Numbered from the stretch's first letter, positions 4,052-57,904 are shown. The stretch: 64,000 nucleotides of DNA from Candidatus Moranbacteria bacterium GW2011_GWC2_40_12 (GCA_000995965.1 LBYD01000001.1:279040-343039), one strand, 5' to 3'. A program made the numbers and translations. The notes: generated from the sequence alone by a model not told the origin.

Positions 4052-5155
4052 TCAAATTATTGTGCCTCCCCCCAAAACTTCTCCATTTTTATAAAAAACC
4101 GCTGACTGGCCCGCTGTCACCGCCCGAAATGGCCTTTTAGTCTCGACAAGAAGCCTTCCCGACTTGCCTGGTATTATTTTAGCAGATATTCTCGTTGAAT
4201 GGTAGCGAATTTGAACGTCAGCCCGGAACGGCGATTTTTTCTTTTCATTTGTCCAATTGACTTTGCTCACCCAAAATTTCTCTTTGTGCAGCTTTTTCGA
4301 GTCGTTTGTGACAATCAGTTCATTTTTTCGAATATTTTTTCCGATTACCCAATACGGTCCGGTTCCTCCGATTTCGATCCCTTTTCGCTGTCCGATCGTA
4401 AAAATGGGCAAACCTCTATGTCTTCCCAAAACTTTTCCCGCTTCATCAATGATGTTTCCGGTTTCTGATTCAATATTCTTTGAAAAATATTTCATGGCGT
4501 CATTATCCGGCATAAAGCAGATATCTTGCGACTCATTCGTGGCAACCGGCAATTTCATTTCTTTCGCCATTTTTTTTACTTCTGATTTTTTATATCCTCC
4601 CAGCGGAAAAATAATTTTCGACAGATCTTTTTGAGCCAATTTATATAGAAAATACGATTGGTCTTTTGTTTTGTCTTCAGCTTCAAAAAGTCCGGCTTTG
4701 AAAAATTTCGGCGGCTTGCTGGCTGAAAGGCAAAGGCCGGACTTTGATTCACCGGCTAAAATACGCCCGCTTATTTTGGCGTAATGACCGGTTGCCGCAT
4801 AATCCGCCTTTTCTTTCTTCATCAAATCGAAAAGCAGGCAAAATTTCATCTCCTTGTTGCATACGACGCAGGGATTGGGGGTCTGGCCTTTTTTGTACGC
4901 GTTGAGAAAATAATCAATCACCCGCTTTTTGAATTCTTTCCGCGCGTCAATTATTTTCAGCGGAATTCCCAATTTATTCGCGATTTTTTTCACTTGGAAA
5001 CTTAGTTTCCAAGTTTGTTTGGTGAAGACAAAATAAGCACCAATAACTTCGTATCCCTGCTTTTTGAGCAGCGCCGCCGCCACTGCCGAATCCACCCCGC
5101 CGGAAAGGGCGACAACGATTTTTTTATGATTATCTTTTGGTCGCTTGTTCATCAT
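4052..5155 (-). CDS. mnmA: tRNA-specific 2-thiouridylase MnmA
   Basis: PP-loop SGGVDSAVAA, catalytic NPCVVCNKEMKF; contains an in-frame palindromic-element insertion (TWKLSFQV). Confidence 0.9.
   Translation of the reverse strand: MMNKRPKDNHKKIVVALSGGVDSAVAAALLKKQGYEVIGAYFVFTKQTWKLSFQVKKIANKLGIPLKIIDARKEFKKRVIDYFLNAYKKGQTPNPCVVCNKEMKFCLLFDLMKKEKADYAATGHYAKISGRILAGESKSGLCLSASKPPKFFKAGLFEAEDKTKDQSYFLYKLAQKDLSKIIFPLGGYKKSEVKKMAKEMKLPVATNESQDICFMPDNDAMKYFSKNIESETGNIIDEAGKVLGRHRGLPIFTIGQRKGIEIGGTGPYWVIGKNIRKNELIVTNDSKKLHKEKFWVSKVNWTNEKKKSPFRADVQIRYHSTRISAKIIPGKSGRLLVETKRPFRAVTAGQSAVFYKNGEVLGGGTII
4982..5004. repeat. PE-A: 23-nt perfect palindrome ACTTGGAAACT-T/A-AGTTTCCAAGT, copy inserted in-frame in mnmA
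   Basis: identical to the palindromes flanking and inside the RAYT-like gene at 14337-14996. Confidence 0.8.
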
Positions 5156-13827: not shown

Positions 13828-14313
13828 TTATTTCTTAAGATAATTTAGCAAAAATCTATTTGCTTCCTTGAAAGCATTGCGTGAATTCTTGTATGTAATA
13901 CGCTTGAGGGATTCTTTGTATTCCAGCCAGGAAAAGTTGACGTGTTCAAATGACAATCTCACCTCTTTTTCTTCTGTTTTTGCTAAATAGGCTGTAACTA
14001 TTTTAAAAATGTTTATTCCTCTATTTGACGCCTTTCGTTCTTTTTTCTCATTACCTTTTGCGCGGTAAAAATATTTATACCAAGTATAAAATCCCGGAAT
14101 TATTTCAAATTTTGTAATCCCTGTTTCTTCTTTGACTTCACGGCGCAATGCATCTTCCCATGTTTCTCCTTTTTCAATATGTCCTTTGGGGAAATCCCAA
14201 TGACCCTGAAAGCCATCGCTTTTCGGATGCTGGATTAGTAAATACAATATTTTATTTTTTTCCCTCCGGAACACCACTGCTCCGACTGATTTTTCAAATG
14301 GCATACTCTCCAC
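13828..14313 (-). CDS. NUDIX hydrolase
   Basis: Nudix box GHIEKGETWEDALRREVKEETGI. Confidence 0.85.
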   Translation of the reverse strand: MESMPFEKSVGAVVFRREKNKILYLLIQHPKSDGFQGHWDFPKGHIEKGETWEDALRREVKEETGITKFEIIPGFYTWYKYFYRAKGNEKKERKASNRGINIFKIVTAYLAKTEEKEVRLSFEHVNFSWLEYKESLKRITYKNSRNAFKEANRFLLNYLKK

Positions 14314-14334
14314 TTGGAAACTTAGTTTCCAAGT
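14312..14334. repeat. PE-A palindrome copy at the 3' flank of RAYT-1
   Basis: ACTTGGAAACTTAGTTTCCAAGT, ends 3 nt before the RAYT-1 stop. Confidence 0.85.
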
Positions 14335-14336
14335 CG

Positions 14337-14996
14337 TTATTCGATTATTAATTTTTCCATCTCCTTTTTGTCTTTTATAGAAACCAGCGATTCTTCCGCA
14401 AATTTTCGATAATCTTCCCCATTTTTGAAATCATCCAAAATCACGCGTTTTTCTCCGCAAAACGTCTTTTCTGAAAAATTATCCGTATATTCCCTCCAAC
14501 TTGAAATCGACTTGGAAACTAAGTTTCCAAGTGAATGGACACGGTCATTGAGATTCACGTAGGCGCTTAAGTGCAACAGATAGCTGTTTGTTTTTATATG
14601 GACTGCTTTGAATGTTCCCTGGAAAAGAGAACCAGAGCGCTCGTGCCTCTTGTTGAAATATTTTGTATAACCTATTCCGAGACGGTGCATGAATTTCTCA
14701 ATGCCCTGCTCGGCTGTCTGTTTGAGAATGAAATGATAGTGGTTAGGATTCAGGCAAAAACACACGAAACCGACCAATTTCTTTTTGGATTTGTTCTTTT
14801 CTTTTCTGTCGCGAAAAAAATTTTCATATATGCTTCCGATCGGATCAAGCGTATTGAATTCATCCATACTCTGAAGAAATCTCCGCATATCCAATTGATC
14901 ACTGAAAATTTCCCGCTTGTCCACTCCGCGATTGAAAATGTGGTAATATTCGCCTTCAGCCAATTGTATTTTTCTCATAGCTGGATTATAGCACAA
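14337..14996 (-). CDS. IS200/IS605-family Y1 (HuH) transposase, REP-associated tyrosine transposase-like (RAYT-1)
   Basis: EYYHIFNRG..., HuH motif NHYHFIL, conserved Y in YLLHLSAYVNLN, SGSLFQGTFK; flanked by PE-A palindromes on both sides and contains one in-frame. Confidence 0.8.
   Translation of the reverse strand: MCYNPAMRKIQLAEGEYYHIFNRGVDKREIFSDQLDMRRFLQSMDEFNTLDPIGSIYENFFRDRKEKNKSKKKLVGFVCFCLNPNHYHFILKQTAEQGIEKFMHRLGIGYTKYFNKRHERSGSLFQGTFKAVHIKTNSYLLHLSAYVNLNDRVHSLGNLVSKSISSWREYTDNFSEKTFCGEKRVILDDFKNGEDYRKFAEESLVSIKDKKEMEKLIIE
14510..14532. repeat. PE-A palindrome copy inside RAYT-1 coding sequence (in-frame, encodes LGNLVSKS)
   Basis: ACTTGGAAACTAAGTTTCCAAGT. Confidence 0.85.
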
Positions 14997-15004
14997 AACA
15001 ATCC

Positions 15005-15027
15005 ACTTGGAAACTAAGTTTCCAAGT
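15005..15027. repeat. PE-A palindrome copy at the 5' flank of RAYT-1
   Basis: ACTTGGAAACTAAGTTTCCAAGT, 9 nt upstream of the RAYT-1 start. Confidence 0.85.
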
Positions 15028-19282: not shown

Positions 19283-19362
19283 CGACTGACCTCCTTAGTC
19301 AAATGGATTTTTGAATAGATATATTAAAAATATCCTGACAAGTGACAAGAGCCCGGCTCTTG

Positions 19363-20418
19363 TCAAAACTTTTTCAACTCCTTCATAAACTCTTTGAGCA
19401 GATTTTTCTCCTCGACTTTTCTCAAAATTTTTCCCTTTTTGCAAATGAGCCCGACGCCTTCGCCGCCGATGACCGCGAGATCCGCTTCGCGCGCTTCGCC
19501 CGGTCCGTTCACCACGCACCCCATCACGGCCACGTGGATATTTTTATCCACGCCTTCGACCATTTTTTCCACTTTTTCCGCCAAACTTATCAAATCAATT
19601 TTTGTCCGCCCGCAAGTCGGGCAGCTTGTCACTGTGATTCCGCGTTTTCGAAGCCCCAATGATCGCAAAATTTCCCATGATACCTTCACTTCCTCGACTG
19701 GATCGGCCGTCAAAGATACGCGGATTGTATCACCAATGCCTTCGTAGAGCAAGTGGCCGATCCCAATAGACGACATTATCGTACCACGGAAAATGGTTCC
19801 CGCTTCGGTGATTCCGAGATGCAAAGGATAATCCACTTTTCGGCTCAAAAATTTATAGCTCTCGACCGTCCGCTCAATATCTGACGCTTTGAGTGAGATT
19901 ACAATATCCCTAAATTTTAGTTTTTCTAATATTTTTATATGCCGCATCGCCGATTCAACCATCCCTTCAGCCGTCACTTTATTTTTGTGCTTCGCGAGAA
20001 TATCTTTTTCAAGCGAACCCGCGTTCACCCCGATCCGGATGGGAATTTTTTTCTTCCGGCAGGCCGCGACGACAAGACCCACTTTTTCAACCGAACCAAT
20101 ATTCCCGGGATTAATCCGCAATTTGTCCACTCCCTGCTTCACGGCTTCCAGCGCCAACTCGTGCGAAAAATGAATGTCCGCCACGAGCGGAATGTTTATC
20201 CTTTTCTTTATTTTTCCCAATACTTTCGCCGCCGCCATATCCGGCACAGCCACGCGAATGATTTCACACCCCGCTTTTTCTAGTTTTTTTATCTGCGCGA
20301 TTGTCCCGGCGACATCCTCTGTTTTTGTGTTCGCCATCGACTGCACCGCCACCGGCGCGTCGCCACCGATGAAAATTTTCCCGACTTTTATTTTTTTGGT
20401 TTTTCGGCGTTTGATCAT
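19363..20418 (-). CDS. ispG: 4-hydroxy-3-methylbut-2-en-1-yl diphosphate synthase IspG (GcpE)
   Basis: KIFIGGDAPVAVQSM..., C-terminal Cys cluster; start placed at MIKRRK (TATAAT just upstream) rather than the 105-aa upstream extension in the ORF track. Confidence 0.9.
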   Translation of the reverse strand: MIKRRKTKKIKVGKIFIGGDAPVAVQSMANTKTEDVAGTIAQIKKLEKAGCEIIRVAVPDMAAAKVLGKIKKRINIPLVADIHFSHELALEAVKQGVDKLRINPGNIGSVEKVGLVVAACRKKKIPIRIGVNAGSLEKDILAKHKNKVTAEGMVESAMRHIKILEKLKFRDIVISLKASDIERTVESYKFLSRKVDYPLHLGITEAGTIFRGTIMSSIGIGHLLYEGIGDTIRVSLTADPVEEVKVSWEILRSLGLRKRGITVTSCPTCGRTKIDLISLAEKVEKMVEGVDKNIHVAVMGCVVNGPGEAREADLAVIGGEGVGLICKKGKILRKVEEKNLLKEFMKELKKF

Positions 20419-21054: not shown

Positions 21055-23850
21055 TTAGGATTGAGATTTATTTTTACTTTCCGCTTTTCTTGCTTCCTCG
21101 AATATGAATACGGCCAGAGTCGCTCCGATCACCACCAGCCAGTCCCAAAAATCAATTGGCGACATATGAAGATATTTTTGAAAAAATGGAATATACATAA
21201 ACGCCAGAAGCATTCCCACTGAAATGAAAATTGAACCGATAAGCCACCTGTTCTTGAAAAATCCGATTTTGAAAACAGAGAGTTTTTCGCTTCTCGCTTG
21301 CATCAAATTGGCCATCTGGGTCATCGAGAGCACCGCATATGTCACCGCCGTCGATTTGATATAGAGCGCTGAACTGAAATCTATTTTTTCTCCGAAATTC
21401 CATCCGCCTCTTTTCATAGACCAGAGAAAGGCTACAATAGCTCCTGTCGCCATGATGAACCCGATATAAAAGAGCCGCCCGAAACCAAAACTCCCAATTA
21501 GCCGCTCGTTGGGATCAAATGTTTTTCTTTTCGTATTTCCCGCCTGCCTGCCCGTTGGCAAGGTTTCGGCCGGCTCGACGCCAAGCGCCAGCGAAGGAAA
21601 TACGTCTGTTCCAAGATCGATCGCAAGAATTTGCACTGCCGTGATGGGAGCCGGAATCATAAACAGGGTTCCGAAAATGACCGTCAAAAATTCGCTGGCG
21701 TTCGAAGAAAGGACATAATAGATGAATTTGCGAATATTTTGATAAATTGTCCTCCCTTCTTTGATTCCGGCAACAATTGAAGAGAAATTATCGTCAAGGA
21801 GAATCATGTCCGAGGCTTCCTTGGAAACATCTGTGCCGATTATTCCCATTGCCACTCCGACATCCGCCTTCTTGAGAGCTGGCGCGTCATTCACTCCGTC
21901 TCCTGTCATCGCTATAACCGCTCCCGATTTTTTGAGAACCGATGCTATGCGCAGTTTTTGCTCGGGAGTGATGCGGGCAAAAACCGAAGCGCCATTTTTA
22001 ATTCGCTTAACAATTTCATTGTCTGGCAAAGTATTCAATATCTTGCCATTAATCACAAAATTATCCGAATTATCAATTGCGAATTTCGAATTACTGCGCA
22101 AAAGATTCACCTTTTGCGCTATCGCTCTCGCTGTCACCTCATAGTCACCTGTTATCATAATCACTTTTATTCCCAATTGCTGGCATTCTTCAATGGCTTT
22201 GGCAACATCGGCTCTCGGCGGGTCAATCATCGCCATCATTCCGACCCAAATCAAATTTTTTTCGGATTCTTTTTTGCAATCGTTTTTATTATAGTTTTCG
22301 AGTGGGCAATAGGCGAAAGCCAAGACCCGAAGCGCTTGTGAAGACATCCGGTCATAAATTTCTTTTGTCTTCTTCTTTTCTTCATCTGAAAAGGGGACTA
22401 TCCCCTCCCTGGTCAATTTTTTGGGGGAGAGGCTCAAGAGAACATCCGGCGAACCCTTAATATACGAAAATATTCCATCCTTACTTCCTTGATTTCCATT
22501 GTTTTTTTCATAAATAACGCTCATGCGCATCCGTTCCGATTCGAACGGATTTTCGTCAACTTTTCGCTCCCCTGCCCCGAAATATTTCTCATCCGGATTA
22601 TATTTCCTCGCCGCGACAATCAGCGCCCCCTCTGTCGGATCGCCAATAATTTTATAATCTTCGCCTTCTTTCTCCAGGCTCGCGTCATTGCAAAGCGCGC
22701 CGATTTTGAGAATTAGGCCCAGGTTCTGAATCTTTTTCGGATCGATCGGCTTGCCATTCACAAGAAATTTTCCAGCCGGCCTGTATCCCTCCCCGCTCAC
22801 CTCGATTTCTTTCTCATCCAAAACAATTTTGGTCACCATCAGCTCATTTTTGGTGATTGTTCCCGTTTTGTCCGTGCAAATGATATTTATCGATCCGAGT
22901 GTTTCGACCGCAATCAATTTTTTTACTAGCACATTTTCCTTCATGAGCCTTCGCATCCCAAGTGAAAGAGCGACTGACATGGCCGCCGGCAGTCCTTCCG
23001 GAACCACCGAGACCGCAACCGCAAGCGCGAAAAGGAAATTCTGATACCAGGAAAGATGCTGAAATCCTCCGGCAACAAGTACCAGAACCGCGATCACCAT
23101 CGCCAAAATCGAAATATCCCTCCCAAGGGTGCGCATTTTTTTCTGAAGCGGGGTCAATTCATCCGCCACTTCTGTTGCGAGCTCGGCGATTTTTCCGAGC
23201 TCTGTTTTTATCCCCGTTGCAACGACAACCGCTTTTGCCTCGCCCTTCGTCACCTGTTCTCCAGTAAAAACCATATTTTCAATGTCCGCTATTGGAAGAC
23301 TTTCTTCAGCGATCAGTTTCGCTTCCTTTCGCTCCGGTTTTGACTCTCCCGTGAAAACAAAACTGTTCGTGTGGAGATTGTAGCTTTCGAGAATATGTCC
23401 GTCCGCCGGGACATTGTCGCCTGAAGCCATAAAAATTATGTCTCCCGGCACAATTTCACTGGCATCAATTTCTTTTTTTCGGCCATTGCGGATAACCGTC
23501 GCTTTGTCAGATGCCAGTTTTTGGATCCGATCCATAATCCGCTCTGCTTTCCATTCCTGAGAAAAACCGATTATCGAGTTAATAAGGATAATGATCAGAA
23601 TGATTGTCACGTCCTTCATTTCTCCAAACGCCAAAGCCAAAACAGCCGCTATCAGCAAGATCCATACCAATGCGTCATTGAATTGGTGCAAAACCAGCTT
23701 TGCCCATCGCCATCTCTCACGTTTTTCAATTTTGTTCGAACCGTATTCTCTCAATCGATTCCCGGCTTCCTCATCCGAAAGCCCGCCCAAATTCGTCCCA
23801 AACTTCCCCAAAACCTCTTCCGCGCTCAAATTGTATATTTGTTTTTCCAT
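21055..23850 (-). CDS. cation-transporting P-type ATPase (type II, Ca2+/Mg2+-like)
   Basis: ICTDKTGTITKN phosphorylation motif, MTGDGVNDAPALKKADVGVAMG, TGES, 10 TM. Confidence 0.9.
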   Translation of the reverse strand: MEKQIYNLSAEEVLGKFGTNLGGLSDEEAGNRLREYGSNKIEKRERWRWAKLVLHQFNDALVWILLIAAVLALAFGEMKDVTIILIIILINSIIGFSQEWKAERIMDRIQKLASDKATVIRNGRKKEIDASEIVPGDIIFMASGDNVPADGHILESYNLHTNSFVFTGESKPERKEAKLIAEESLPIADIENMVFTGEQVTKGEAKAVVVATGIKTELGKIAELATEVADELTPLQKKMRTLGRDISILAMVIAVLVLVAGGFQHLSWYQNFLFALAVAVSVVPEGLPAAMSVALSLGMRRLMKENVLVKKLIAVETLGSINIICTDKTGTITKNELMVTKIVLDEKEIEVSGEGYRPAGKFLVNGKPIDPKKIQNLGLILKIGALCNDASLEKEGEDYKIIGDPTEGALIVAARKYNPDEKYFGAGERKVDENPFESERMRMSVIYEKNNGNQGSKDGIFSYIKGSPDVLLSLSPKKLTREGIVPFSDEEKKKTKEIYDRMSSQALRVLAFAYCPLENYNKNDCKKESEKNLIWVGMMAMIDPPRADVAKAIEECQQLGIKVIMITGDYEVTARAIAQKVNLLRSNSKFAIDNSDNFVINGKILNTLPDNEIVKRIKNGASVFARITPEQKLRIASVLKKSGAVIAMTGDGVNDAPALKKADVGVAMGIIGTDVSKEASDMILLDDNFSSIVAGIKEGRTIYQNIRKFIYYVLSSNASEFLTVIFGTLFMIPAPITAVQILAIDLGTDVFPSLALGVEPAETLPTGRQAGNTKRKTFDPNERLIGSFGFGRLFYIGFIMATGAIVAFLWSMKRGGWNFGEKIDFSSALYIKSTAVTYAVLSMTQMANLMQARSEKLSVFKIGFFKNRWLIGSIFISVGMLLAFMYIPFFQKYLHMSPIDFWDWLVVIGATLAVFIFEEARKAESKNKSQS

Positions 23851-23857
23851 AGCCCTT

Positions 23858-23878
23858 CGTAGGTGTCGGACACCTACG
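23858..23878. repeat. PE-B: 21-nt perfect palindrome CGTAGGTGTC-G/C-GACACCTACG at 3' flank of RAYT-2
   Basis: distinct from PE-A; located between P-type ATPase start and RAYT-2 stop. Confidence 0.85.
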
Positions 23879-23880
23879 AT

Positions 23881-24528
23881 TTATTCTAGTAAATATTTCT
23901 CCCTTTCCTTTTTCTCTTTCATATACAAAGAATTTTCTTTTATAAATTCTCGATATTCATTCTTATTTTTAAATTCATTAAGAATAACACCTGTGTCACA
24001 AATCCCCCCGTTTCTTTTCCCAGTATAATCTAAAAAACTGGAATATGGCCAGTCAAAATCGTCACCGTATCCATGAATAAAATAGTTTTTGTTAACATAG
24101 GCTGATAAATAAAGAAGATGTGCGTTTGTCCTTATACGGATCGATTTAAATTTCCCCTGAAACAATACTCCGGATCTTTTGTAATGATAGTTGAAATAAT
24201 TTGTATAACCGCCTCCGAGCCTTTTCATATATTCAGAAATTCCATGTTCTGTTGATTGTTTTAAGATCAAGTGAAAATGATTCGGATTAAGACAATAACA
24301 TATGATTTCAACTAATTTTTCCATTCGTAGGTGTCCGACACCTACGTCTTGCTTTCTTTCTTGCTGACTGTGCCTATACAAGCTATGGATAGGATCAATT
24401 TGGTTAAATTCTTTCATGGACGTTAAAAATCGATTATAGTCTCTGTTGGATAAAAAAACTTTCCGTTTTTCAACGCCACGGTTATAAATGTGGTAATATT
24501 CATTGACATCTAGGGGTTGTTTTCTCAT
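23881..24528 (-). CDS. IS200/IS605-family Y1 transposase, RAYT-like (RAYT-2), paralog of 14337-14996
   Basis: EYYHIYNRG, NHFHLIL (HuH), YLLYLSAYVNKN, SGVLFQGKFK; own palindrome PE-B on both flanks and in-frame (VGVGHLR). Confidence 0.8.
   Translation of the reverse strand: MRKQPLDVNEYYHIYNRGVEKRKVFLSNRDYNRFLTSMKEFNQIDPIHSLYRHSQQERKQDVGVGHLRMEKLVEIICYCLNPNHFHLILKQSTEHGISEYMKRLGGGYTNYFNYHYKRSGVLFQGKFKSIRIRTNAHLLYLSAYVNKNYFIHGYGDDFDWPYSSFLDYTGKRNGGICDTGVILNEFKNKNEYREFIKENSLYMKEKKEREKYLLE
24326..24346. repeat. PE-B palindrome copy inside RAYT-2 coding sequence (in-frame)
   Basis: CGTAGGTGTCCGACACCTACG. Confidence 0.85.
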
Positions 24529-24534
24529 AAACCT

Positions 24535-24552
24535 TAGGTGTCGAACACCTAC
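24535..24552. repeat. degenerate PE-B copy at the 5' flank of RAYT-2
   Basis: TAGGTGTCGAACACCTAC (one mismatch in loop). Confidence 0.7.
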
Positions 24553-24580
24553 AAAATCATTTTACCACAAAACCGGCCGC

Positions 24581-25209: not shown

Positions 25210-25248
25210 TTAGAGCTTCGCTAAAGTTGAACCTTAGCGAGAATAGAA

Positions 25249-25276
25249 AGAGCGGATATTTCCGCTCTTTTTCTTT
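25249..25276 (+). terminator. intrinsic terminator downstream of the PilX-like gene
   Basis: AGAGCGGATATTTCCGCTCT + TTTTCTTTATTTT. Confidence 0.5.
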
Positions 25277-25642
25277 ATTTTATAACATAACTCGACCCAA
25301 CATTAACCATTCCTAAAGTTGAACTTTAGGAAGAGAGGATATCTCGTGGATATTGTCAGTTATTGATTGATGTCAAATCACTATCATACGATAGTAAAAC
25401 AAAAAGCTAAAAAAGGAATCGAAAAATTTTAGAGTTTTGCTAAGGTTCGACCTTAGCAAAGGCAGGAATTGGAAATTTTTTTATATTTCCTTCCTTCCCT
25501 CAATTGCGCCGGTGAGTAACCATTCCTAAAGTTTAACTTAAGGAAGTCAAAAAGAACGAGTCCACAGCTCGTTCTTTGAATATTATCCAAAAATTTGTTA
25601 TCCTAAGGCTTCCTAACATCCGATGTTAGAAAATAGAAAACT

Positions 25643-25674
25643 CACCGCTTTCGAGCGGTGGGTTTTTCTTTTGC
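25643..25674. terminator. bidirectional intrinsic terminator (serves htrA on minus strand)
   Basis: CACCGCTTTCGAGCGGTG flanked by A-rich (5') and T-rich (3') runs. Confidence 0.45.
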
Positions 25675-25747
25675 GGATTCTTTTGTAACCCTTACCAACA
25701 TTGAATGTTGGTAAGATGTTGGTAAGAAAAAAAGCGGTTTAGTTTTT

Positions 25748-25768
25748 GTAGGTGTCCGACACACCTAT
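25748..25768. repeat. degenerate PE-B copy just 3' of htrA
   Basis: GTAGGTGTCCGACACACCTAT. Confidence 0.6.
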
Positions 25769-25773
25769 GAGTT

Positions 25774-27045
25774 TCATTTCCTCTCCTCCAGTTTCACTTG
25801 AACTGTTTTTTCCTCGCCTTTGTGCCAGATTTTCAGGTTGATTGTGTCGCCGACGTTCGATTTCGCGATTTGGTCGCTCAATAGATTTTTTTCATCAATC
25901 TTCACGCCGTTTATTTCAAGAATAATGTCATTTTCCGTGAGTCCCGCTTTGTCCGCCGGACTTCCCGGAACAACCGCGAAGTCAGTCACTTTTTGCCCGC
26001 GAAGCACCAGCGCGCCATAGCCATATGGCAAATTATTTGCTTTCTTTATTTCTTCCGTTATTGGTATGTATCGCACGCCAATGTAAGGCTGGACTATTTT
26101 TCCTTTCGATTTCACGCTTTCGATGCCCTTTTTCACGATATTTATGGGAAGCGCAAAACCGATGTTTTCAGCCCCTTGCGCCATTGCAACATTCACGCCT
26201 ATCACCTGTCCGCTGATATTGAGAAGAGGCCCGCCGGAATTCCCCGGATTGATGGCCGCGTCTGTCTGAATCACCTCGCTCAAAGTTTCCGCCTGCCCGA
26301 ATCCATCTCCGGCCGTCACATTGCGTTTGAGGCCGGAAATGATTCCTTTGCTGACCGTGTTTCGAAATTCCCCGAGCGAATTTCCGATCGCAATGACCGT
26401 CTGCCCAATTTTCAAATTGCCTGAATCGGCCAATTCCAAAACCGGCAAATTGTTTCCGGCTTCGATCTTGAGAATGGCAACGTCGTTCACCGGATCGATT
26501 GCCATCACCTTAGCCGCGTGTTTTTTTTCGTCATTTGTCATCACGGTATATTCCGCCTCCTGGTCGGAAACAACATGCTTATTGGTCACAATCAGCCCAT
26601 CTTTTGAAACGATAAATCCCGAACCTCCGCCAATTTCCTGTTTTTCCGTCTCTCCCTGATTTTGCTGTTGCCTCTGGCTCGATCCGAAAGGATTGAAAAA
26701 AGGATCAAAACCGAAGGGATCGGAAAAAAAGTCCTGCATTTTTGGAATGTCTTTGGAAACAATGATACTCACCACAGCCGGCGAAGCTTTTTCGACTGAC
26801 GCCGTCACGGCCGATTCTTCATCGGGAAAATTGATGGTGCTCCCCGCACTGCCAGAATTCTTTTGCCCGACCTGATTTTGATTTTTCTTCAAAAAATCAA
26901 GGCTGAATTTTCCCTGCCCCAGATTCCCAGCCATAAAACCAAAAAGAGCCCCGAAAAATGAGGAAATGAGAAATGTGATAACAAAAAAACCGATCAGAAT
27001 TTTTTTATAAGTTTTTACCAATTCTTTGTTTTCTCGATTGAGCAT
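25774..27045 (-). CDS. htrA: HtrA/DegP-family periplasmic serine protease with PDZ domain
   Basis: GNSGGPLLN catalytic Ser motif, His/Asp triad context, C-terminal PDZ, N-terminal TM anchor. Confidence 0.9.
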   Translation of the reverse strand: MLNRENKELVKTYKKILIGFFVITFLISSFFGALFGFMAGNLGQGKFSLDFLKKNQNQVGQKNSGSAGSTINFPDEESAVTASVEKASPAVVSIIVSKDIPKMQDFFSDPFGFDPFFNPFGSSQRQQQNQGETEKQEIGGGSGFIVSKDGLIVTNKHVVSDQEAEYTVMTNDEKKHAAKVMAIDPVNDVAILKIEAGNNLPVLELADSGNLKIGQTVIAIGNSLGEFRNTVSKGIISGLKRNVTAGDGFGQAETLSEVIQTDAAINPGNSGGPLLNISGQVIGVNVAMAQGAENIGFALPINIVKKGIESVKSKGKIVQPYIGVRYIPITEEIKKANNLPYGYGALVLRGQKVTDFAVVPGSPADKAGLTENDIILEINGVKIDEKNLLSDQIAKSNVGDTINLKIWHKGEEKTVQVKLEERK

Positions 27046-32707: not shown

Positions 32708-33670
32708 TTAAATTTTGAATTTTATTCTCTGTAGAATGAAATATGCAGCAGAAAAGATTGCGATAAAAACCATCTTTCCGATCGCGTTTAAATTCAGTGC
32801 CGCAAGCCCAACAATCATGCCAAAAACACATACCAATACCACGATCTGCTTTTCGCCTAGTCCCAATTTTAGCAGTTTGTGATGAAGATGTCGACTGTCC
32901 CCGCCTGAAAATATGGATCCGCCGGCATGATGCCTTTCCCATATCACACTCACCAGATCCAAAACTGGTATAAGTGTTACCATGAAAACTGTCGCTATTT
33001 TTGCTCCCGCAAATATGGACAGGCTGGCAAGGAGAAACCCAAAAAACCAGGCGCCAGATGTCCCGGCTATGATTTTTGCCGGATGCCAGTTGAAAACCAA
33101 GAAAGCCAAAACTGCCCCAGCAGCGGTTGCGCACAAAATTGCCGCCGCCGGCTGATTGACATGCGGCAAGAGGCTCAAAAAAAATATCTCGGCCAGTGCC
33201 ACGAATGTCACGCTTCCCGAAAGACCGTCAATTCCGTCAAGCCAATTCAATGCATTAATAAAGAGCAAAAAGTATAACGTGTAAATAAAAATGTATACGG
33301 CAGGATTTTCGAGATTTATGGTTCCACCGAAAGGATTTGCCGTATATCCGCTCCGCACACCAAATAATATCGCTGTGATCGCTATTATAACTTGAAATGC
33401 CAACTGCCATTTCCAATTTAGATTTTTTATATCATCCCACAACCCAAAAATCAGAATCAACAGTCCACCGGTAATAATCCCCGCAATCGGTTTCGTGATG
33501 ACCAAGTCTTTATCGTATAGTACGAATAAAATGAAAATTACAATCACAACTAAACCTCCCAACCTCTTTTTAAGGTTCGGCCTTAAAAATGGCGTCCGCA
33601 GCAAAAAAAATATCGCGATGATCGATAATAAAAAAGAAAATAGAAATGGGAGAAGAAATTTTGCCGCCAC
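32708..33670 (-). CDS. glycosyltransferase family 4 polyprenyl-phosphate hexose-1-phosphate transferase (WecA/MraY superfamily)
   Basis: IFGLWDDIKNL, NALNWLDGIDGL, 10 or more TM. Confidence 0.85.
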   Translation of the reverse strand: MAAKFLLPFLFSFLLSIIAIFFLLRTPFLRPNLKKRLGGLVVIVIFILFVLYDKDLVITKPIAGIITGGLLILIFGLWDDIKNLNWKWQLAFQVIIAITAILFGVRSGYTANPFGGTINLENPAVYIFIYTLYFLLFINALNWLDGIDGLSGSVTFVALAEIFFLSLLPHVNQPAAAILCATAAGAVLAFLVFNWHPAKIIAGTSGAWFFGFLLASLSIFAGAKIATVFMVTLIPVLDLVSVIWERHHAGGSIFSGGDSRHLHHKLLKLGLGEKQIVVLVCVFGMIVGLAALNLNAIGKMVFIAIFSAAYFILQRIKFKI

Positions 33671-40566: not shown

Positions 40567-40992
40567 TTATTTCAGATTCACAGTCGCGCCCGCTTCTTCG
40601 AGCTTCTTTTTCAGTTCATCCGCCTCGGCTTTCGGAGCTTTCTCTTTGATCACCTTTGGAGCCGCGTCAACCAGGTCTTTGGCGTCTTTCAAACCTTTTC
40701 CGGTGATTTCACGAACAACCTTGATCACATTGATCTTGGCATCCCCGGGCGCTACCAGTTCGATGTCGAATTCACTCTTTTCTTCAGCCGCCGCGCCCGC
40801 CTCTCCGCCGGCCGCCGGCATTCCAGCCATCATCATTGGAGCTGCCGCGCTTACCCCGAATTTCTCTTCGAGTATTTTCACGAGCTCGGAAAGCTCAAGA
40901 ACAGACATTTTTTCGATCTGCTCAACAAGAGCTTTGAATTTTTCCGGAACCTCGACTTCTATTTTTTCTTCCGTTGTTTTTTCTTCTGACAT
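40567..40992 (-). CDS. rplL: 50S ribosomal protein L7/L12
   Basis: N-terminal dimerisation helix, Ala/Gly hinge, C-terminal [26 protein letters not shown]. Confidence 0.9.
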
Positions 40993-45665: not shown

Positions 45666-47417
45666 TCACCAGCTTCCTCCGCCTCCGCCACCGAATCCAC
45701 CGCCACCTCCCCCTCCGGAAAAACCGGAACCGCCGCCGGATGCTGAAGATGGCTGGCTGGCCATGGCCGTCCCGGCTGTATTCGAAAAATCATTTATCAG
45801 GCTTGATAAAATTATAGCATTGAAAGCCCGCCCAGACGAATCCTCGTACCAGTCCGGCTGCTGGTTGTATATTCCTTCAAATTGCTTCGCCCATTCTTTT
45901 TCAACCCCAAGAACCATCGCGTAGGGTAGAAATCTTTCGAACATCTGGGGATTTTTCTCGGGCGCGTTATGAAATTTCAACCGATCCGTTTCCGTGACAG
46001 AGAGAAAATCCTTGAATCCCAGAATATTTTCCTTGATCCCGGCGCCTTTTTTGGTCACCGCCGGCATCAGCCAGCCAAAGATTGCTATGATTATCGTCGA
46101 GACAATCCCGCTAAACACTCCCCATCCTCCCTGAAGATTGCCGAAAATCACTGTGAGGAATACTCCGCCGATTATCCCGCCAATAAGCCAACCAGCTCTC
46201 GTACTATTCGGATTTGAAACATAATATCCTTTTTCTGTGATGCCCTTATAAAGCTGGTCTTTTACCGCCGCGAGGGTTTTGAAAAATTTGTTTTTGAGAT
46301 CCGATAATTTCTTTTCTTTATCCCCATTGAAGATTCCCTTCATCACTTCTTTTTCAAAATCCCGCGTCGGCTCTTCATCCTTGATTTTAATAAACGTATA
46401 ATCCTTGCTTTTCGTCCCGAAAAATCCCTTTTCCTCCGTGCGTTTGATTTTCAAGAATTTGTTGACAGCCAGATCAATGATTGTCGAAGAAACATCCTTG
46501 TTGTCCGCCGAACCATCCATCATTGTTCCGATTTCCGCCGGCGCGAGCTTGTCCGGCGGTTCATATTGCGCGATGATTGTCCCCCGCCCTTTCGGGTCAC
46601 GGCCCTTTTTGCTCCAAAGGCGATACATAAAGACAAAAACAATGATTGGAAAAAATAGCGTCCAGTTATCGCGCGCGATATCCATAATTTTTACCCTAGA
46701 GCTCAGCTCTAGGGTAATTCCTTTCGGCCAGCCGGCGACAATCGTCATCCCTTCGCCGGGATTGATTATTCCCGTTGATTTATATTCTAAAATATTTCCG
46801 CTCGCGCTTGCCACGCATTCATTCGTGGTCCCAAAAACTCCTTCAAAGCATTTGTACTGCAAATTTTCTATGGCGTTTTCTGGAAGAATAATTTTGAGCG
46901 CTGCGCTCTCAATGGGGACTGGCCATTTGTCGCCCGTGAAGTTCCAATAAAGCTCATCGTGATCTGGGAAAAAATTCACCGCCCGACGAATTACGTAACT
47001 AATTACGTAATTCTTCGTCCCGCTGACGTATTTGTCCGCGTCGCCGATTTGAAATTTTATATTCTCGCCCTCGTAATCCGTGGTGAAATTATACGGCGCG
47101 CCGTTTTCGTCCGTGATTTTCATGTTCGAAACCCGCAAATTATAATTCCCTCCCCGCGCTTTGTATTTCACCGGAATGAACCGGAAAATTCCGTGCTTCT
47201 GCTGGTCGCCAAAGTCATAAGCGATAGTCTCTTTTACATCAATCGTGCTGTCTGAGTTTATTCGGATATCGCCGATGAAATTTATGATTTTCTCGGTGCT
47301 AGGATAACTTTGTGCAAAAGATGAATTTAAGGAAAATATAAGAAATAAGAAACAAGAAATAAGAAAAATTGGAAATTTTTTATTTCTTCTATTTATTTTT
47401 TCTATTTTATTTCTCAT
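45666..47417 (-). CDS. DUF2207-like membrane protein (large extracytoplasmic N-domain, C-terminal TM pair, Gly-rich tail)
   Basis: signal peptide, ...GGGSGFSGGGGGGGFGGGGGGSW tail; carries in-frame PE-C palindrome (TLELSSRV). Confidence 0.65.
   Translation of the reverse strand: MRNKIEKINRRNKKFPIFLISCFLFLIFSLNSSFAQSYPSTEKIINFIGDIRINSDSTIDVKETIAYDFGDQQKHGIFRFIPVKYKARGGNYNLRVSNMKITDENGAPYNFTTDYEGENIKFQIGDADKYVSGTKNYVISYVIRRAVNFFPDHDELYWNFTGDKWPVPIESAALKIILPENAIENLQYKCFEGVFGTTNECVASASGNILEYKSTGIINPGEGMTIVAGWPKGITLELSSRVKIMDIARDNWTLFFPIIVFVFMYRLWSKKGRDPKGRGTIIAQYEPPDKLAPAEIGTMMDGSADNKDVSSTIIDLAVNKFLKIKRTEEKGFFGTKSKDYTFIKIKDEEPTRDFEKEVMKGIFNGDKEKKLSDLKNKFFKTLAAVKDQLYKGITEKGYYVSNPNSTRAGWLIGGIIGGVFLTVIFGNLQGGWGVFSGIVSTIIIAIFGWLMPAVTKKGAGIKENILGFKDFLSVTETDRLKFHNAPEKNPQMFERFLPYAMVLGVEKEWAKQFEGIYNQQPDWYEDSSGRAFNAIILSSLINDFSNTAGTAMASQPSSASGGGSGFSGGGGGGGFGGGGGGSW
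46691..46717. repeat. PE-C: palindrome TTACCCTAGAGCT-C-AGCTCTAGGGTAA in-frame in DUF2207 gene
   Basis: identical 25-nt core also inside secA at 55354-55378. Confidence 0.8.
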
Positions 47418-54671: not shown

Positions 54672-55252
54672 TTTGTATTCCCCAGATCAGTGACAGCCTC
54701 ATGCACAATCTTCAGCCCGATTTCTTTCATATAGCCGATAATTTCGTCTTTTGAAAAATAGCTGAAAAATCTTTCATATTCGTATCCATAGTCATTTTCT
54801 AATACTACTTCTTCTTCCTGACCGTTTTTTCTTTTTTCTTTGACCGCGATATATAAATATCCGCCTTTTTTCAGTTTTTTGGCTACCTTTTCCAAAACAG
54901 GAATAATCTTTTTTTTGGGTATATGAAGCAGTACCGCTTGCATAAAAATACCGTCGAAAGTTTCTTTCAAATTTTCAATATCATCCAAGTCCAAAACCAT
55001 GAACCGGCCGGCGGGAACTTCTTTTTTGGCGATTTTTATCATCTCTTTGGAAAAATCAATCCCGACAACCTCTAATCCTTTTCCAATCAAATATTTTGAT
55101 TTTGTTCCAGCTCCGCAACCAACGTCGAGAACCAGATCATTTTCCGCAAGAAGCGAAACAAATTTGTCAGTCCCGACAACCCACCACTCGTCTTTTTGAT
55201 GGTCCTTGTGCCAGTCTTTCGCAATTTTATTATAGGTATCTTTCAAATCCAT
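54644..55252 (-). CDS. class I SAM-dependent methyltransferase
   Basis: motif I VLDVGCGAGTKS, motif II-III spacing. Confidence 0.8.
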   Translation of the reverse strand: MDLKDTYNKIAKDWHKDHQKDEWWVVGTDKFVSLLAENDLVLDVGCGAGTKSKYLIGKGLEVVGIDFSKEMIKIAKKEVPAGRFMVLDLDDIENLKETFDGIFMQAVLLHIPKKKIIPVLEKVAKKLKKGGYLYIAVKEKRKNGQEEEVVLENDYGYEYERFFSYFSKDEIIGYMKEIGLKIVHEAVTDLGNTNWIQVIGKK

Positions 55253-55258
55253 AAATTC

Positions 55259-57904
55259 TTACGCCCCGCAACATTTTTTATACTTTTTCCCCGATCCGCA
55301 TGGGCATGGGTCATTGCGGCCGATTTCGGTTTTATTGCGGATAGTCTGGCCGCTTACCCTAGAGCTCAGCTCTAGGGTCGAATCTGAAGCGAATTGCGCC
55401 GGCTGTTCCTCCGCCCCCTGATATTTCGCCTCTTCAAGGATATTTTTTTGCGGAGCCGGCTCTTCTTTCAATAAGCCGACTTTGAAAATATTTGTGATGA
55501 CCGCGATTCGGATGGCTGCCATCAAATTCTGGAAAAGAAGGTAGGCTTCTTTTTTATATTCCACCAGCGGATCCCTCTGTCCGTATCCCCGAAGCCCGAT
55601 TCCTTCCCGAAGATAATCAACATCGTCCAAATGGTTCATCCAAAAAGTATCGATGGCGCGCAGATACATAGCTTTTTCAATCTGGCGCATAATTTCCGGC
55701 TTGATTTCCTGCTCTTTCTTCCCATAAGCTTCTTTGGCCAATCCTTTTAAAAATTCGATAATGGCAGAAACTTTTTGAACATCATTCATGTGATCCTTGG
55801 AGCGCTTGAGTTCCAAAAGTCTCTTGAAAGAGTCCTCATCAACCCGAAAAATTTGTCCCAAAGCATCTTTTATCTCTCCCACATTCCAATCCTCCGCGTG
55901 TCCAGCCGTGTGAAGACCCACAATCTGCTCGATTTCTTCTTCAACCATCCCGATGATTTCACTCTTCAATGTTTCCTTTGTGAGAATTTCTTTGCGTTTC
56001 TTGTATATCACTTCCCTTTGCTTGTTCATCACGTCGTCGTATTCCAAGACATGTTTTCTGATATCAAAATTGAAACCTTCAATCTTGGCTTGGGCGGACT
56101 CGATCGATTTTGAAATAATTTTGTTCTCAATCGGCTGGTCTTCAGGAAGGCCGAAGCGGTCCATGATATTTTTCACCCGGTCGCCGCCGAAACGTCTCAT
56201 CAGCTCATCCTCAAGTGAAACATAAAATTGCGAAGCTCCCGGATCGCCCTGCCGGCCGGCGCGACCGCGCAGCTGATTGTCGATCCTCCGCGCTTCGTGC
56301 CGTTCGGTTCCGATGATGCGAAGGCCGCCCAGACCTGCCACACCCTCGCCGAGCTTGATGTCAGTTCCCCGCCCGGCCATATTCGTGGCAATGGTCACCG
56401 CGCCGCGCTGCCCGGCTTTGGCGATGATAAGCGCTTCCCGTTCGTGATTTTTGGCATTCAAAACTTCGTGCTCGACACCGGTTTTGGCAAGCATGTCCGA
56501 AAGGACTTCCGACTTCTCAATCGCGACTGTACCCACCAGCACCGGCTGTCCCTTTCCGCTGAGGCGCTTTATTTCCTCGATCACCGCCCTGAATTTTCCG
56601 TCTTCGGTTTTGTATACCATATCCGGGTGGTCTTCACGGATCATCGGCACATTGGTCGGTATCGGAACCACATCGAGATTATAAACTTTGGCGAATTCTT
56701 CGGCACTGGTGAGTGCCGTCCCGGTCATCCCGGATAATTTTTTGTAGATGCGGAAATAATTTTGGAAAGTAATCGTTGCCAGAGTCCTTGATTCTTTCTG
56801 CACTTCGACGTTTTCTTTGGCTTCTATGGCCTGATGAAGTCCTTCGGAATATCTTCGCCCCGGCATCAAGCGACCAGTGAAATCGTCAACTATGATGACT
56901 TGCCCGTCCCGAACGACATAATCGCGATCAAGCTTGAATAAAATGTTGGCTTTCAAGGCCTGCTCGAGCTGGTGGACATAGGAAATTTTCGATATGTCAT
57001 AAATATTTCCGATGCCGAGCATTTCTTCGACTCTTCCGATTCCTTTTTCTGTGAGCGACACTGCCCTCATCTTCTGATCAACTGTGAAATCTTCATCTTC
57101 TTTGAGCCGCGGGACGATTTGGGCAAATCGTTTATAAAGTTTGGTTGATTCCGAATCCGGCGCGCTGATGATAAGAGGCGTCCTGGCCTCATCAATCAAA
57201 ATGCTGTCTACTTCGTCCACAATGGCATAATTCAGTTCTCGCTGCACCATTTGGTCAAGACTTTGCACCATATTGTCCCGGAGATAATCGAACCCGAATT
57301 CGTTGTTTGTGCCATAGGTGATGTCAGCCGCGTAGGCCTCGCGTCGCGAAACGGGTCTCAGATTTTCCGTTTCAATGCTAACTTCGTCAGAATCATGAAT
57401 TTTTGGTTCGTACATAAAAGACGCATCATGCTGGATGCTCGCACAAGTGAGACCGAGGAAATGATAAATCGGTCCCATCCAATTCATATCCCGCTTGGCG
57501 AGATAATCATTGACTGTCACCACATGAACTCCTTTTCCTGAAAGCGCGTTGAGATATACTGCGGTAGTGGCTGTATGCGTCTTTCCTTCTCCTGTTTTCA
57601 TTTCGGCAATTTTTCCTTCATGAAGAGTGATTCCGCCCAGGAGCTGGACATCGAAAAGCCTTTTTTCATCCACTCTCTTTATCGCTTCGCGCACTACGGA
57701 AAAAGATTCCGGAAGTATATCATCCGTTTTTTCGCCTCCGCCAGACGGCGGATTCAGCCTCTTTTTGAATTCATTCGTTTTTGCTTTCAGCTCTTCGTCG
57801 GACAGCTTGCTGACCGCCGCTTCGAGTTCGTTTATCTTTTCGACCAAAGGCTGGAGCTTTTTCACTTGCCGTTCGGCTCCGCCAAATAAGCGTTTTAGAA
57901 TCAT
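55259..57904 (-). CDS. secA: preprotein translocase ATPase SecA (with C-terminal zinc finger [14 protein letters not shown])
   Basis: DEAD-like motor domains, full-length alignment to SecA; PE-C palindrome in-frame near C-terminus. Confidence 0.9.
55354..55378. repeat. PE-C palindrome copy in-frame in secA (encodes TLELSSRV)
   Basis: TTACCCTAGAGCTCAGCTCTAGGGT identical to 46691-46715. Confidence 0.8.

Follow-up and report, generated by a model that had tools for sequence, protein, structure and literature searches.

A probable REPtron-like module of a Y1/HUH transposase gene and its cognate palindrome in a candidate phyla radiation bacterium

RAYT-2 and its palindrome at the locus

Repetitive extragenic palindromic (REP) sequences and the REP-associated tyrosine transposases (RAYTs) form the best-studied example of a domesticated transposase that coexists with its repeats. 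In this study, we analysed a 64-kb stretch of DNA (64,000 nucleotides, referred to as the window) from Candidatus Moranbacteria bacterium GW2011_GWC2_40_12, and in it the gene RAYT-2 and the short palindrome that accompanies it, PE-B. The coordinates of the features are given in Table 1. The initial annotation had described the open reading frame (ORF) at 23881-24528 as about 50% identical to a second gene of the window, RAYT-1, and had taken the two for homologous transposases. Full-length comparison gave 48-50% identity (tblastn, E=4.6e-59; 50% in the MAFFT alignment), and both proteins passed the Pfam model PF01797 (Y1_Tnp), RAYT-2 with 32.6 bits and RAYT-1 with 30.1 bits against a cut-off of 23. 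These results confirmed both the degree of identity and the homology.

The RAYT-2 product was 100% identical to a database protein labelled Candidatus Moranbacteria bacterium GW2011_GWC1_45_18, and it carries a C-terminal extension of 65 residues. Alignment of 28 homologs showed the HUH motif (H84-F-H86) and Y144 to be invariant, along with the N-terminal YH..NRG strand. A HUH-type motif, N-x-N-H-x-H, was kept in 120 of the 121 listed homologs. The AlphaFold2 (AF2) model built from the 28-homolog alignment was confident (predicted local distance difference test (pLDDT) 83.9; predicted TM score (pTM) 0.83) and placed Y144, the candidate catalytic tyrosine, on helix 135-146. When this model was compared with the PDB using Foldseek, the top match was 4ER8 (E=1.2e-7; TM score 0.67, normalised to the target), which is the E. 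coli RAYT in complex with a REP hairpin. The next ranks were ISDra2, IS608 and IS200 TnpA, with E<1e-3. A PDB search with the RAYT-2 sequence only returned nothing significant, the best transposase having E=0.83. One family search matched more than 2,300 proteins, and most of the named ones came from candidate phyla radiation (CPR) bacteria.

PE-B has the form GTAGGTGTC-S-GACACCTAC, that is, 5'-GTAG-GTGTC-S-GACAC-CTAC-3'. The perfect 19-mer GTAGGTGTCSGACACCTAC was found at 23859-23877 and 24327-24345, and none of 100 dinucleotide shuffles of the sequence contained a match. RAYT-2 had been said to be bracketed by a palindrome different from that of RAYT-1, and this was borne out by the perfect copy downstream (23859-23877), the upstream copy with two mismatches (24534-24552) and a degenerate copy at 25748-25770. 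The degenerate copy reads GTAGGTGTC C GACAC-AC-CTAT, and a 7-bp hairpin is still predicted for it. As single-stranded DNA (ssDNA), the perfect palindrome was predicted to form a 9-10-bp stem with a 3-nt loop (-9 to -10 kcal/mol, z -4.4 to -5.5). No Rfam family matched these hairpins. The extended -10-like box ahead of the upstream copy may be the RAYT-2 promoter; similar boxes stand at the matching place in several orthologs. A simple promoter scan called no promoter for RAYT-2, as a good -35 element was lacking.

The palindrome of RAYT-1, PE-A, has the same layout around and within its gene as PE-B has for RAYT-2, and a fourth copy lies at 4992, away from RAYT-1. The in-frame copy of PE-B had been noted for RAYT-2; RAYT-1 also has its own palindrome in frame (14510-14532), and its ortholog in locus L064 retains this in-frame copy. 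RAYT-1 has no palindrome at the site just before the HUH strand (the pre-HUH site), where RAYT-2 holds its copy, and carries PE-A elsewhere in the protein, at codon 149. RAYT-1 is an exception to the pre-HUH site, yet it fits the in-frame pattern.

The in-frame copy and the palindromes of each gene lineage

The in-frame copy at 24326 had been described as encoding an extra VGVGHLR segment that is absent from RAYT-1. The reading frame was confirmed and the site is without a palindrome in RAYT-1, but the copy is not an incidental insertion peculiar to this gene. It occupies a conserved site of the family, and the segment exceeds the RAYT-1 loop by only 4 residues. In the 28-homolog alignment, close homologs read VGVRHL, LDVGRL, VAVRPL, VEVKPL or FGHPMSK at this site, and these varied residues are the peptide images of different palindromes. 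For the 121 homologs with a HUH-type motif, each peptide was examined for any choice of codons that gives a perfect 19-nt odd palindrome. A compatible peptide was found at most 19 codons before the HUH strand in 97 of the 121 homologs, compared with only 160 compatible windows elsewhere in all 121 proteins (about 0.2% of windows). Of the 24 misses, several fell short by a single base.

At the DNA level, the internal palindrome, wherever a locus read had one, matched a flanking copy, the two loci with doublets included. Across 12 loci, 95% of the stem cells were Watson-Crick pairs and at least 2 pair types occurred at 9 of the 10 stem positions; in controls with the partner shifted by 1-3 bases, pairing was 19-33%. 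In the AF2 model, the encoded residues 59-68 form a loop with pLDDT<50 from helix 50-57 to strand 73-80, just before the HUH beta-strand. The arms of the internal palindrome were 97% identical among seven orthologs. In the same orthologs, identity over the 90 nt of coding DNA on each side of it was 67% and 82%, and at third codon positions it was 50-63%. Because the arms are conserved next to diverging flanks and encode a disordered loop, the constraint at the internal site is on the DNA and not on the peptide. These results indicate that the in-frame copy is the norm of the family and not an accident.

We then read 20 homolog genes at the DNA level. Every one of them had its own palindrome family at its ends, and most were flanked by copies on both sides. 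Going by the centre base, these flanking copies were mostly in direct orientation. The families were GTAGGTGTC, TAGACGTC, GTAGCGGTT, GTAGAGGTT, GTAGAGATT, TTGGACATC, TTGGACAC, GGGGACT doublets, GGCTCT doublets, TTCCTAACATT and PE-A. Eight RAYT-2 orthologs (67-82% identity) had PE-B at both ends where the contig reached. Three copies each were found of xTAGACGTC-S-GACGTCTAx in L098, of GTAGAGGTT-W-AACCTCTAC in L100 and of TTGGACATC-S-GATGTCCAA in L102, where the gene still adjoins the ATPase. L103 carried TTGGACAC-NNN-GTGTCCAA, L104 and L105 carried doublets of GGGGACTWAGTCCCC and GGCTCTWAGAGCC, L042 carried TTCCTAACATTGAATGTTAGGAA, and L082 carried CGGGTCCATGTCCGGCATGGACCCG at both ends with none inside the gene. 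In L014, L099 and L101, the upstream and internal copies were of one family, whereas the downstream copy was of a different one. Since these three loci mix families and syntenic loci differ in theirs, the palindromes switch in place and the gene remains fixed. Such change in place is the co-evolution of one gene with one repeat that the initial annotation had proposed from two paralogs with their own hairpins, and the separate palindrome families at the ends of all 20 genes uphold it.

Inheritance of the gene and dispersal of palindromes

The identical RAYT-2 protein was present on 24 contigs, and its context was the same on all of them. In other Moranbacteria and Parcubacteria (L014, L098, L099 and L102), orthologs with 59-79% identity stood immediately ahead of the same P-type ATPase gene. 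L098 and L099 also had the neighbours HtrA, GcpE and PolX in common with the window, and L102 had PolX, NUDIX and SecD. On one 320-kb metagenome contig, the orthologs of RAYT-1 and RAYT-2 were about 9.5 kb apart, as in the window. A near-identical second copy of the module was not found in the window, nor was any genome seen with two near-identical copies. The single context on 24 contigs, the conserved synteny and the linked pair of orthologs indicate that RAYT-2 is vertically inherited and behaves as a domesticated RAYT, not as an insertion sequence.

The order of Y1 gene and P-type cation ATPase, in the same orientation, was seen in Moranbacteria and other Parcubacteria down to 55-59% protein identity (L102 240-3731, L103 10001-14581, L098, L099 and window 21055-24528). 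One ORF lies between the two genes in L103, the ATPase was called as two ORFs in L098 and L099, and the downstream palindrome is located between Y1 gene and ATPase wherever the two adjoin. At L088 601-1243, a RAYT-2 ortholog is frameshifted right behind the internal palindrome and all three of its PE-B copies are perfect; either the gene is a pseudogene and another enzyme maintains its hairpins, or the assembly is wrong at the hairpin. Between L014 (about 800-1150), the locus of the Moraniibacteriota metagenome-assembled genome (MAG) STD1_53, and window 23780-24120, a patch of about 340 bp showed 88-98% identity in loci that are otherwise 60-75% identical. The patch extends over the C-terminal third of the gene, across the downstream PE-B and into the start of the ATPase gene. 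Its centre is the downstream PE-B, and it looks like recent recombination around the palindrome. The L014 ortholog has another upstream and internal palindrome, yet PE-B downstream. A cassette swap was considered, in which a unit made up of the upstream palindrome, codons 1-60 and the internal palindrome would be exchanged by recombination at the internal palindrome. It was rejected, as the breakpoints of the patch in a sliding-window comparison were not at the internal palindrome.

The DNA of the source genome that was covered amounts to 74 kb, consisting of the window and 10 kb past its left end. It contained one solo copy of PE-A and no perfect solo copy of PE-B. Exact PE-B was found on 7 contigs of STD1_53, a MAG in which the RAYT-2 ortholog shares synteny with the window. 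It was also found in 75 metagenome stretches, and about 60 of these had no RAYT in the fetched locus; one 78.6-kb metagenome contig holds five copies. PE-B had been considered as possibly confined to this locus and so simply a local inverted repeat, but in relatives most of these copies are far from a RAYT. Their centre base was almost always G or C. Among the solo copies, 28 of 87 were within long ORFs and read VGV[GR]HL or [CR]RC[PR]TPT; the third reading frame includes TAG. The host ORFs, with translations inspected by eye, include DnaX, ThrRS, MurD, CysRS and UvrC. With about a third of the solo PE-B copies in long ORFs and four palindromes inside ORFs of the window, the palindromes here are not strictly extragenic, and this part of the REP reading was given up.

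Three further observations concern PE-B. The same 19-mer core with T or A at the centre (GGTAGGTGTCTGACACCTACC) occurred 2-3 times per genome in unrelated phyla, namely in Steroidobacteraceae (L006, L009), Coxiellaceae (L011, L016), Gammaproteobacteria MAG (L003, L007, L018) and Planctomycetota (L010, L020). These copies are probably the GTAG-type REPs of those phyla themselves, and the resemblance to PE-B looks convergent. In an orthologous membrane protein gene of three organisms (L005, L052 and L086), PE-B was present at one site in different reading frames, giving RRCPTPTSAKGVRHLQ, VGVRHLQ and CRCPTPTSFKGIGHLQ, with an extra half copy present or absent; PE-B is remodelled in place within this coding region. 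Tandem repeats of a single arm stood beside a full palindrome at window 25691-25726 and in L029, L032, L039, L059, L062 and L064, for example as CACCTACAACACCTACAAAACACCTAC or as three to four GTAGGTGT units. Such arm repeats were present at 17 of 99 non-redundant PE-B copies and may be the footprint of a cutting and joining reaction or of slippage.

The window as a whole contained 15 odd palindromes with arms of at least 9, against 0.8 expected, in about ten families. Four of them are inside ORFs. Those in the DUF2207 protein and SecA are of one family in two unrelated genes; they add little or no length relative to orthologs, and one ortholog has a decayed palindrome at the same DUF2207 site. 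The palindrome in the family-4 glycosyltransferase (GT4) gene may be upstream of the true start codon. No Y1 gene cognate to the FLRPNLKK and TLELSSRV families was found in the window. The intergenic region 25210-25775, between a PilX-like and an HtrA-like gene, holds what is left of a third RAYT gene, together with six or more palindromes of other families (at 25218, 25310, 25436, 25522, 25607 and 25691), with three terminator-like hairpins interleaved and the decayed PE-B copy at its end. The palindrome at 25310-25332 precedes the relic at the place of the internal palindrome of the family. This region is a graveyard of modules. Weak profile matches at 54,700-54,970, after SecA, were also considered as a RAYT relic and rejected, as the ORF there is a class I methyltransferase.

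Table 1. Positions in the window of RAYT-2, RAYT-1, their palindromes and other palindromic features
Feature	Position	Strand	Basis or remarks
RAYT-2, 215-aa Y1/HUH single-strand DNA endonuclease/transposase-like gene	23881-24528	-	ORF call, Pfam, alignment, AF2 model, fold match
Downstream PE-B copy CGTAGGTGTCGGACACCTACG	23858-23878		Repeat scan; 2 nt past RAYT-2 stop, 7 nt ahead of P-type ATPase ATG; hairpin -10.2 kcal/mol (ssDNA)
Internal in-frame PE-B copy, encodes DVGVGHLR	24326-24346		Repeat scan; codons 61-68; pLDDT<50 at residues 59-68
Upstream PE-B copy, 2 mismatches (TTAGGTGTCGAACACCTAC)	24534-24552		Ends 5 nt before RAYT-2 ATG; 7-bp hairpin
Decayed PE-B copy	25748-25770		3 nt past stop of HtrA-like gene; 2-nt insertion and 1 mismatch
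Extended -10-like box TGGTAAAAT	24559-24567	-	Read from upstream sequences; 6 nt upstream of upstream PE-B
RAYT-1, 213-aa paralog for comparison, 50% identical to RAYT-2	14340-14978	-	tblastn, Pfam, MAFFT
PE-A copy ACTTGGAAACTWAGTTTCCAAGT, downstream of RAYT-1	14312-14334
PE-A copy, upstream of RAYT-1	15005-15027
PE-A copy, in-frame in RAYT-1, SLGNLVSKS	14510-14532		Codons 149-157, over the family's nearly invariant Trp
Intragenic PE-A in MnmA, TWKLSFQV	4992-5014		Inside HUP domain match
Intragenic palindrome in GT4 glycosyltransferase, FLRPNLKK	33567-33589		27 codons into longest ORF
Intragenic palindrome in DUF2207 protein, TLELSSRV	46691-46717		Between its two domains
Intragenic palindrome in SecA, TLELSSRV	55356-55378		Linker before SEC-C motif
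RAYT relic, third gene, HUH region SNHYHTIVKQKAKKGIEKF, 63 nt	25367-25429	+	hmmsearch with family profile, E=2.7e-5, profile positions 80-99
Unique perfect palindrome TGACAAGAGCC-C-GGCTCTTGTCA	19343-19365		Overlaps GcpE/IspG stop codon
Unique perfect palindrome TTTCCTAATCTC-C-GAGATTAGGAAA	40538-40562		4 nt past stop of ORF 40567-40992

Interpretation and comparison with known systems

We consider it probable that RAYT-2 and PE-B form a REPtron-like module in a CPR bacterium, in which an enzyme of the RAYT/IS200 superfamily, a Y1/HUH single-strand DNA endonuclease-ligase whose gene is fixed in the chromosome and vertically inherited, is paired with a cognate palindrome. A previous report showed that TnpAREP binds ssDNA REP hairpins with a 5' GTAG and cuts at CT 5' or 3' of the REP (PMC8266576). 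By analogy with TnpAREP, we infer that RAYT-2 acts as a hairpin-cutting enzyme. It would bind the PE-B hairpin on single-stranded DNA and cleave beside it by means of Tyr144 and a metal bound by the HUH motif. Through the rejoining of strands, PE-B would be copied to or replaced at other sites, and the copies already present would stay identical. In PE-B, GTAG is paired with CTAC, which holds CT, the dinucleotide cut by TnpAREP, so that cleavage may occur at the base of the stem. In the reading that we prefer, the enzyme would act in cis, mostly near its own gene, and the pre-HUH loop would be the only permissive site of the ORF, tolerating 7-15 extra residues. A cognate copy would for this reason have lodged in that loop early in the family and would since have been renewed by homogenisation driven by the enzyme.

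Several points weigh against this reading. Against the NCBIfam RAYT equivalog model NF047646, which has a cut-off of 80 bits, RAYT-2 and RAYT-1 scored 29.5 and 23.3 bits, and their identity to 4ER8 is about 14%. Classical REPs have an unpaired GTAG at the base of their hairpin, and those on either side of a RAYT are in inverted orientation, whereas the GTAG of PE-B is in the stem; PE-B is moreover a perfect palindrome, the same on both strands but for the centre base. With GTAG in the stem of a strand-symmetric palindrome, the geometry of recognition may differ. The homogenisation is deduced from conservation, and selection on each copy would look identical. In the 74 kb of the source genome, no PE-B was found outside the surroundings of RAYT-2, so the local copy number is low, and ongoing dissemination of PE-B in this genome is unproven.

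The RAYT label given by the initial annotation was upheld by the nearest fold, 4ER8, but not by the NCBIfam equivalog cut-off. Some homologs are named 'RayT' in their source records, a label of automatic annotation. Because the proteins pass the Pfam model, fall short of the NCBIfam one and match 4ER8, we place RAYT-2 and RAYT-1 in a distant branch of the Y1 family that is closest in fold to the RAYTs. As the scores are far under the RAYT cut-off, they belong to an undescribed branch and are not classical RAYTs. The module works like a REPtron, yet it fails the curated sequence model of RAYTs.

We also weighed an autonomous IS200-like insertion sequence of about 695 bp, with the order hairpin, tnpA, hairpin, whose excision footprints or miniature derivatives would be the solo palindromes. 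Its hairpins would abut both ends of the ORF, as observed, and in most orthologs they have the same orientation by centre base, like the left and right ends of IS200/IS605 elements; several paralogs per genome, a decayed third copy 900 bp away and the frameshifted copy in L088 also fit. This explanation is improbable, in view of the lack of a near-identical pair in one genome (the paralogs are 50% identical), the single context of the identical protein, and a position conserved across species down to 59% protein identity. In addition, the palindromes switch in place and the gene stays, and solo copies are far more numerous than genes. Still less credible is the idea that the palindromes are sites or terminators for another host factor and adjoin Y1 genes by coincidence. 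Copies do occur right behind stop codons (23858, 25748, 19343 and 40538), and several palindromes were terminator-like on the plus strand in a simple scan. A host factor would hardly account for a lineage-specific palindrome at both ends and inside of genes, as in the 20 homolog genes, or for the many copies within ORFs; the coding strand of RAYT-2 has no T-run, and the hairpins have no Rfam match.

The internal and upstream hairpins might instead be cis-regulatory, with the enzyme or an RNA hairpin limiting RAYT expression and the copies being matched to the specificity of the enzyme by selection. The upstream copy would then act at the 5' end of the transcript or at the promoter, and the internal copy in the message or on the non-template strand. 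The internal site is filled in about 80% of homologs with compensatory change, and its DNA is conserved far beyond the need of a disordered peptide. In the RAYT-2 clade, the upstream copy directly follows the conserved extended -10-like box; in L100 and L101, it directly precedes a TGCTATAAT box. IS200 is known to repress its transposase through 5' hairpins. We regard this alternative, the main one for the internal copy, as rather unlikely. RAYT-1 and its ortholog are without a palindrome at the pre-HUH site and have theirs at codon 149, and the L082 gene has no internal palindrome at all. In L104 and L105 the internal copy is the full doublet found downstream, which resembles a copied element and not a tuned operator, and solo copies in unrelated genes are just as perfect. 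Within the REPtron-like reading, self-limitation of RAYT expression by the upstream and internal hairpins is possible. We propose only tentatively that the in-frame hairpin is a working part, serving either as a self-target through which RAYT expression or integrity is throttled, or as a protected master copy that renews the palindromes of the genome.

The module resembles the REPtrons of Proteobacteria (Nunvar 2010, PMC2817692; Ton-Hoang/Messing 2012, PMC3479197; Corneloup 2021, PMC8266576) in its single-domain Y1/HUH protein with the fold nearest 4ER8, in having one gene lineage per palindrome family, flanking cognate palindromes and several distinct modules per genome, and in vertical inheritance. 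GTAG also begins the palindromes of the RAYT-2 clade, which, like group 3 REPs, have short, perfect stems and a 3-nt loop. It differs in its host, a CPR bacterium with a very small genome, in protein sequence (both the low identity and the score under the RAYT cut-off), in low local copy number and many intragenic copies, and in the in-frame cognate copy that most members of the family hold inside the gene. The elements IS200, IS608 and ISDra2 of the IS200/IS605 group share with it the HUH/Y1 fold and sub-terminal hairpins at either end of a unit of about 700 bp, and hairpins near the transposase start are shared with IS200. The unit in the window is unlike them in being single-copy and syntenic across species without a sign of movement, in having identical perfect palindromes in place of distinct left and right ends, and in the C-terminal extension of RAYT-2.

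Intragenic REPs have already been described from other phyla (Di Nocera 2013, PMC3733652). Like these and the Rickettsia palindromic elements, the palindromes here are in frame in housekeeping genes, including those of replication and repair, and are tolerated in loops and linkers. Most reported inserts add 20-30 or more residues, and the elements here are 19-27 nt (7-9 codons). The palindromes here are also tied to a dedicated Y1 gene, including a conserved copy inside that gene. A literature search found no paper on RAYT or REP in CPR bacteria, nor on a REP inside a RAYT ORF.

Very small CPR genomes, usually called streamlined, keep many families of short mobile palindromes, and even essential proteins such as SecA and MnmA accommodate them. 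To our knowledge, hairpin recognition and the co-evolution of enzyme and hairpin are known from only three enzymes tested in vitro. In this family, one ORF is enough to match an enzyme with its likely target, and often the protein sequence suffices, which makes hundreds of natural enzyme-hairpin pairs available for a recognition code. If the in-frame hairpin is indeed a working part, the gene would be tied to its repeat, and the DNA specificity of each protein could be read from its sequence.

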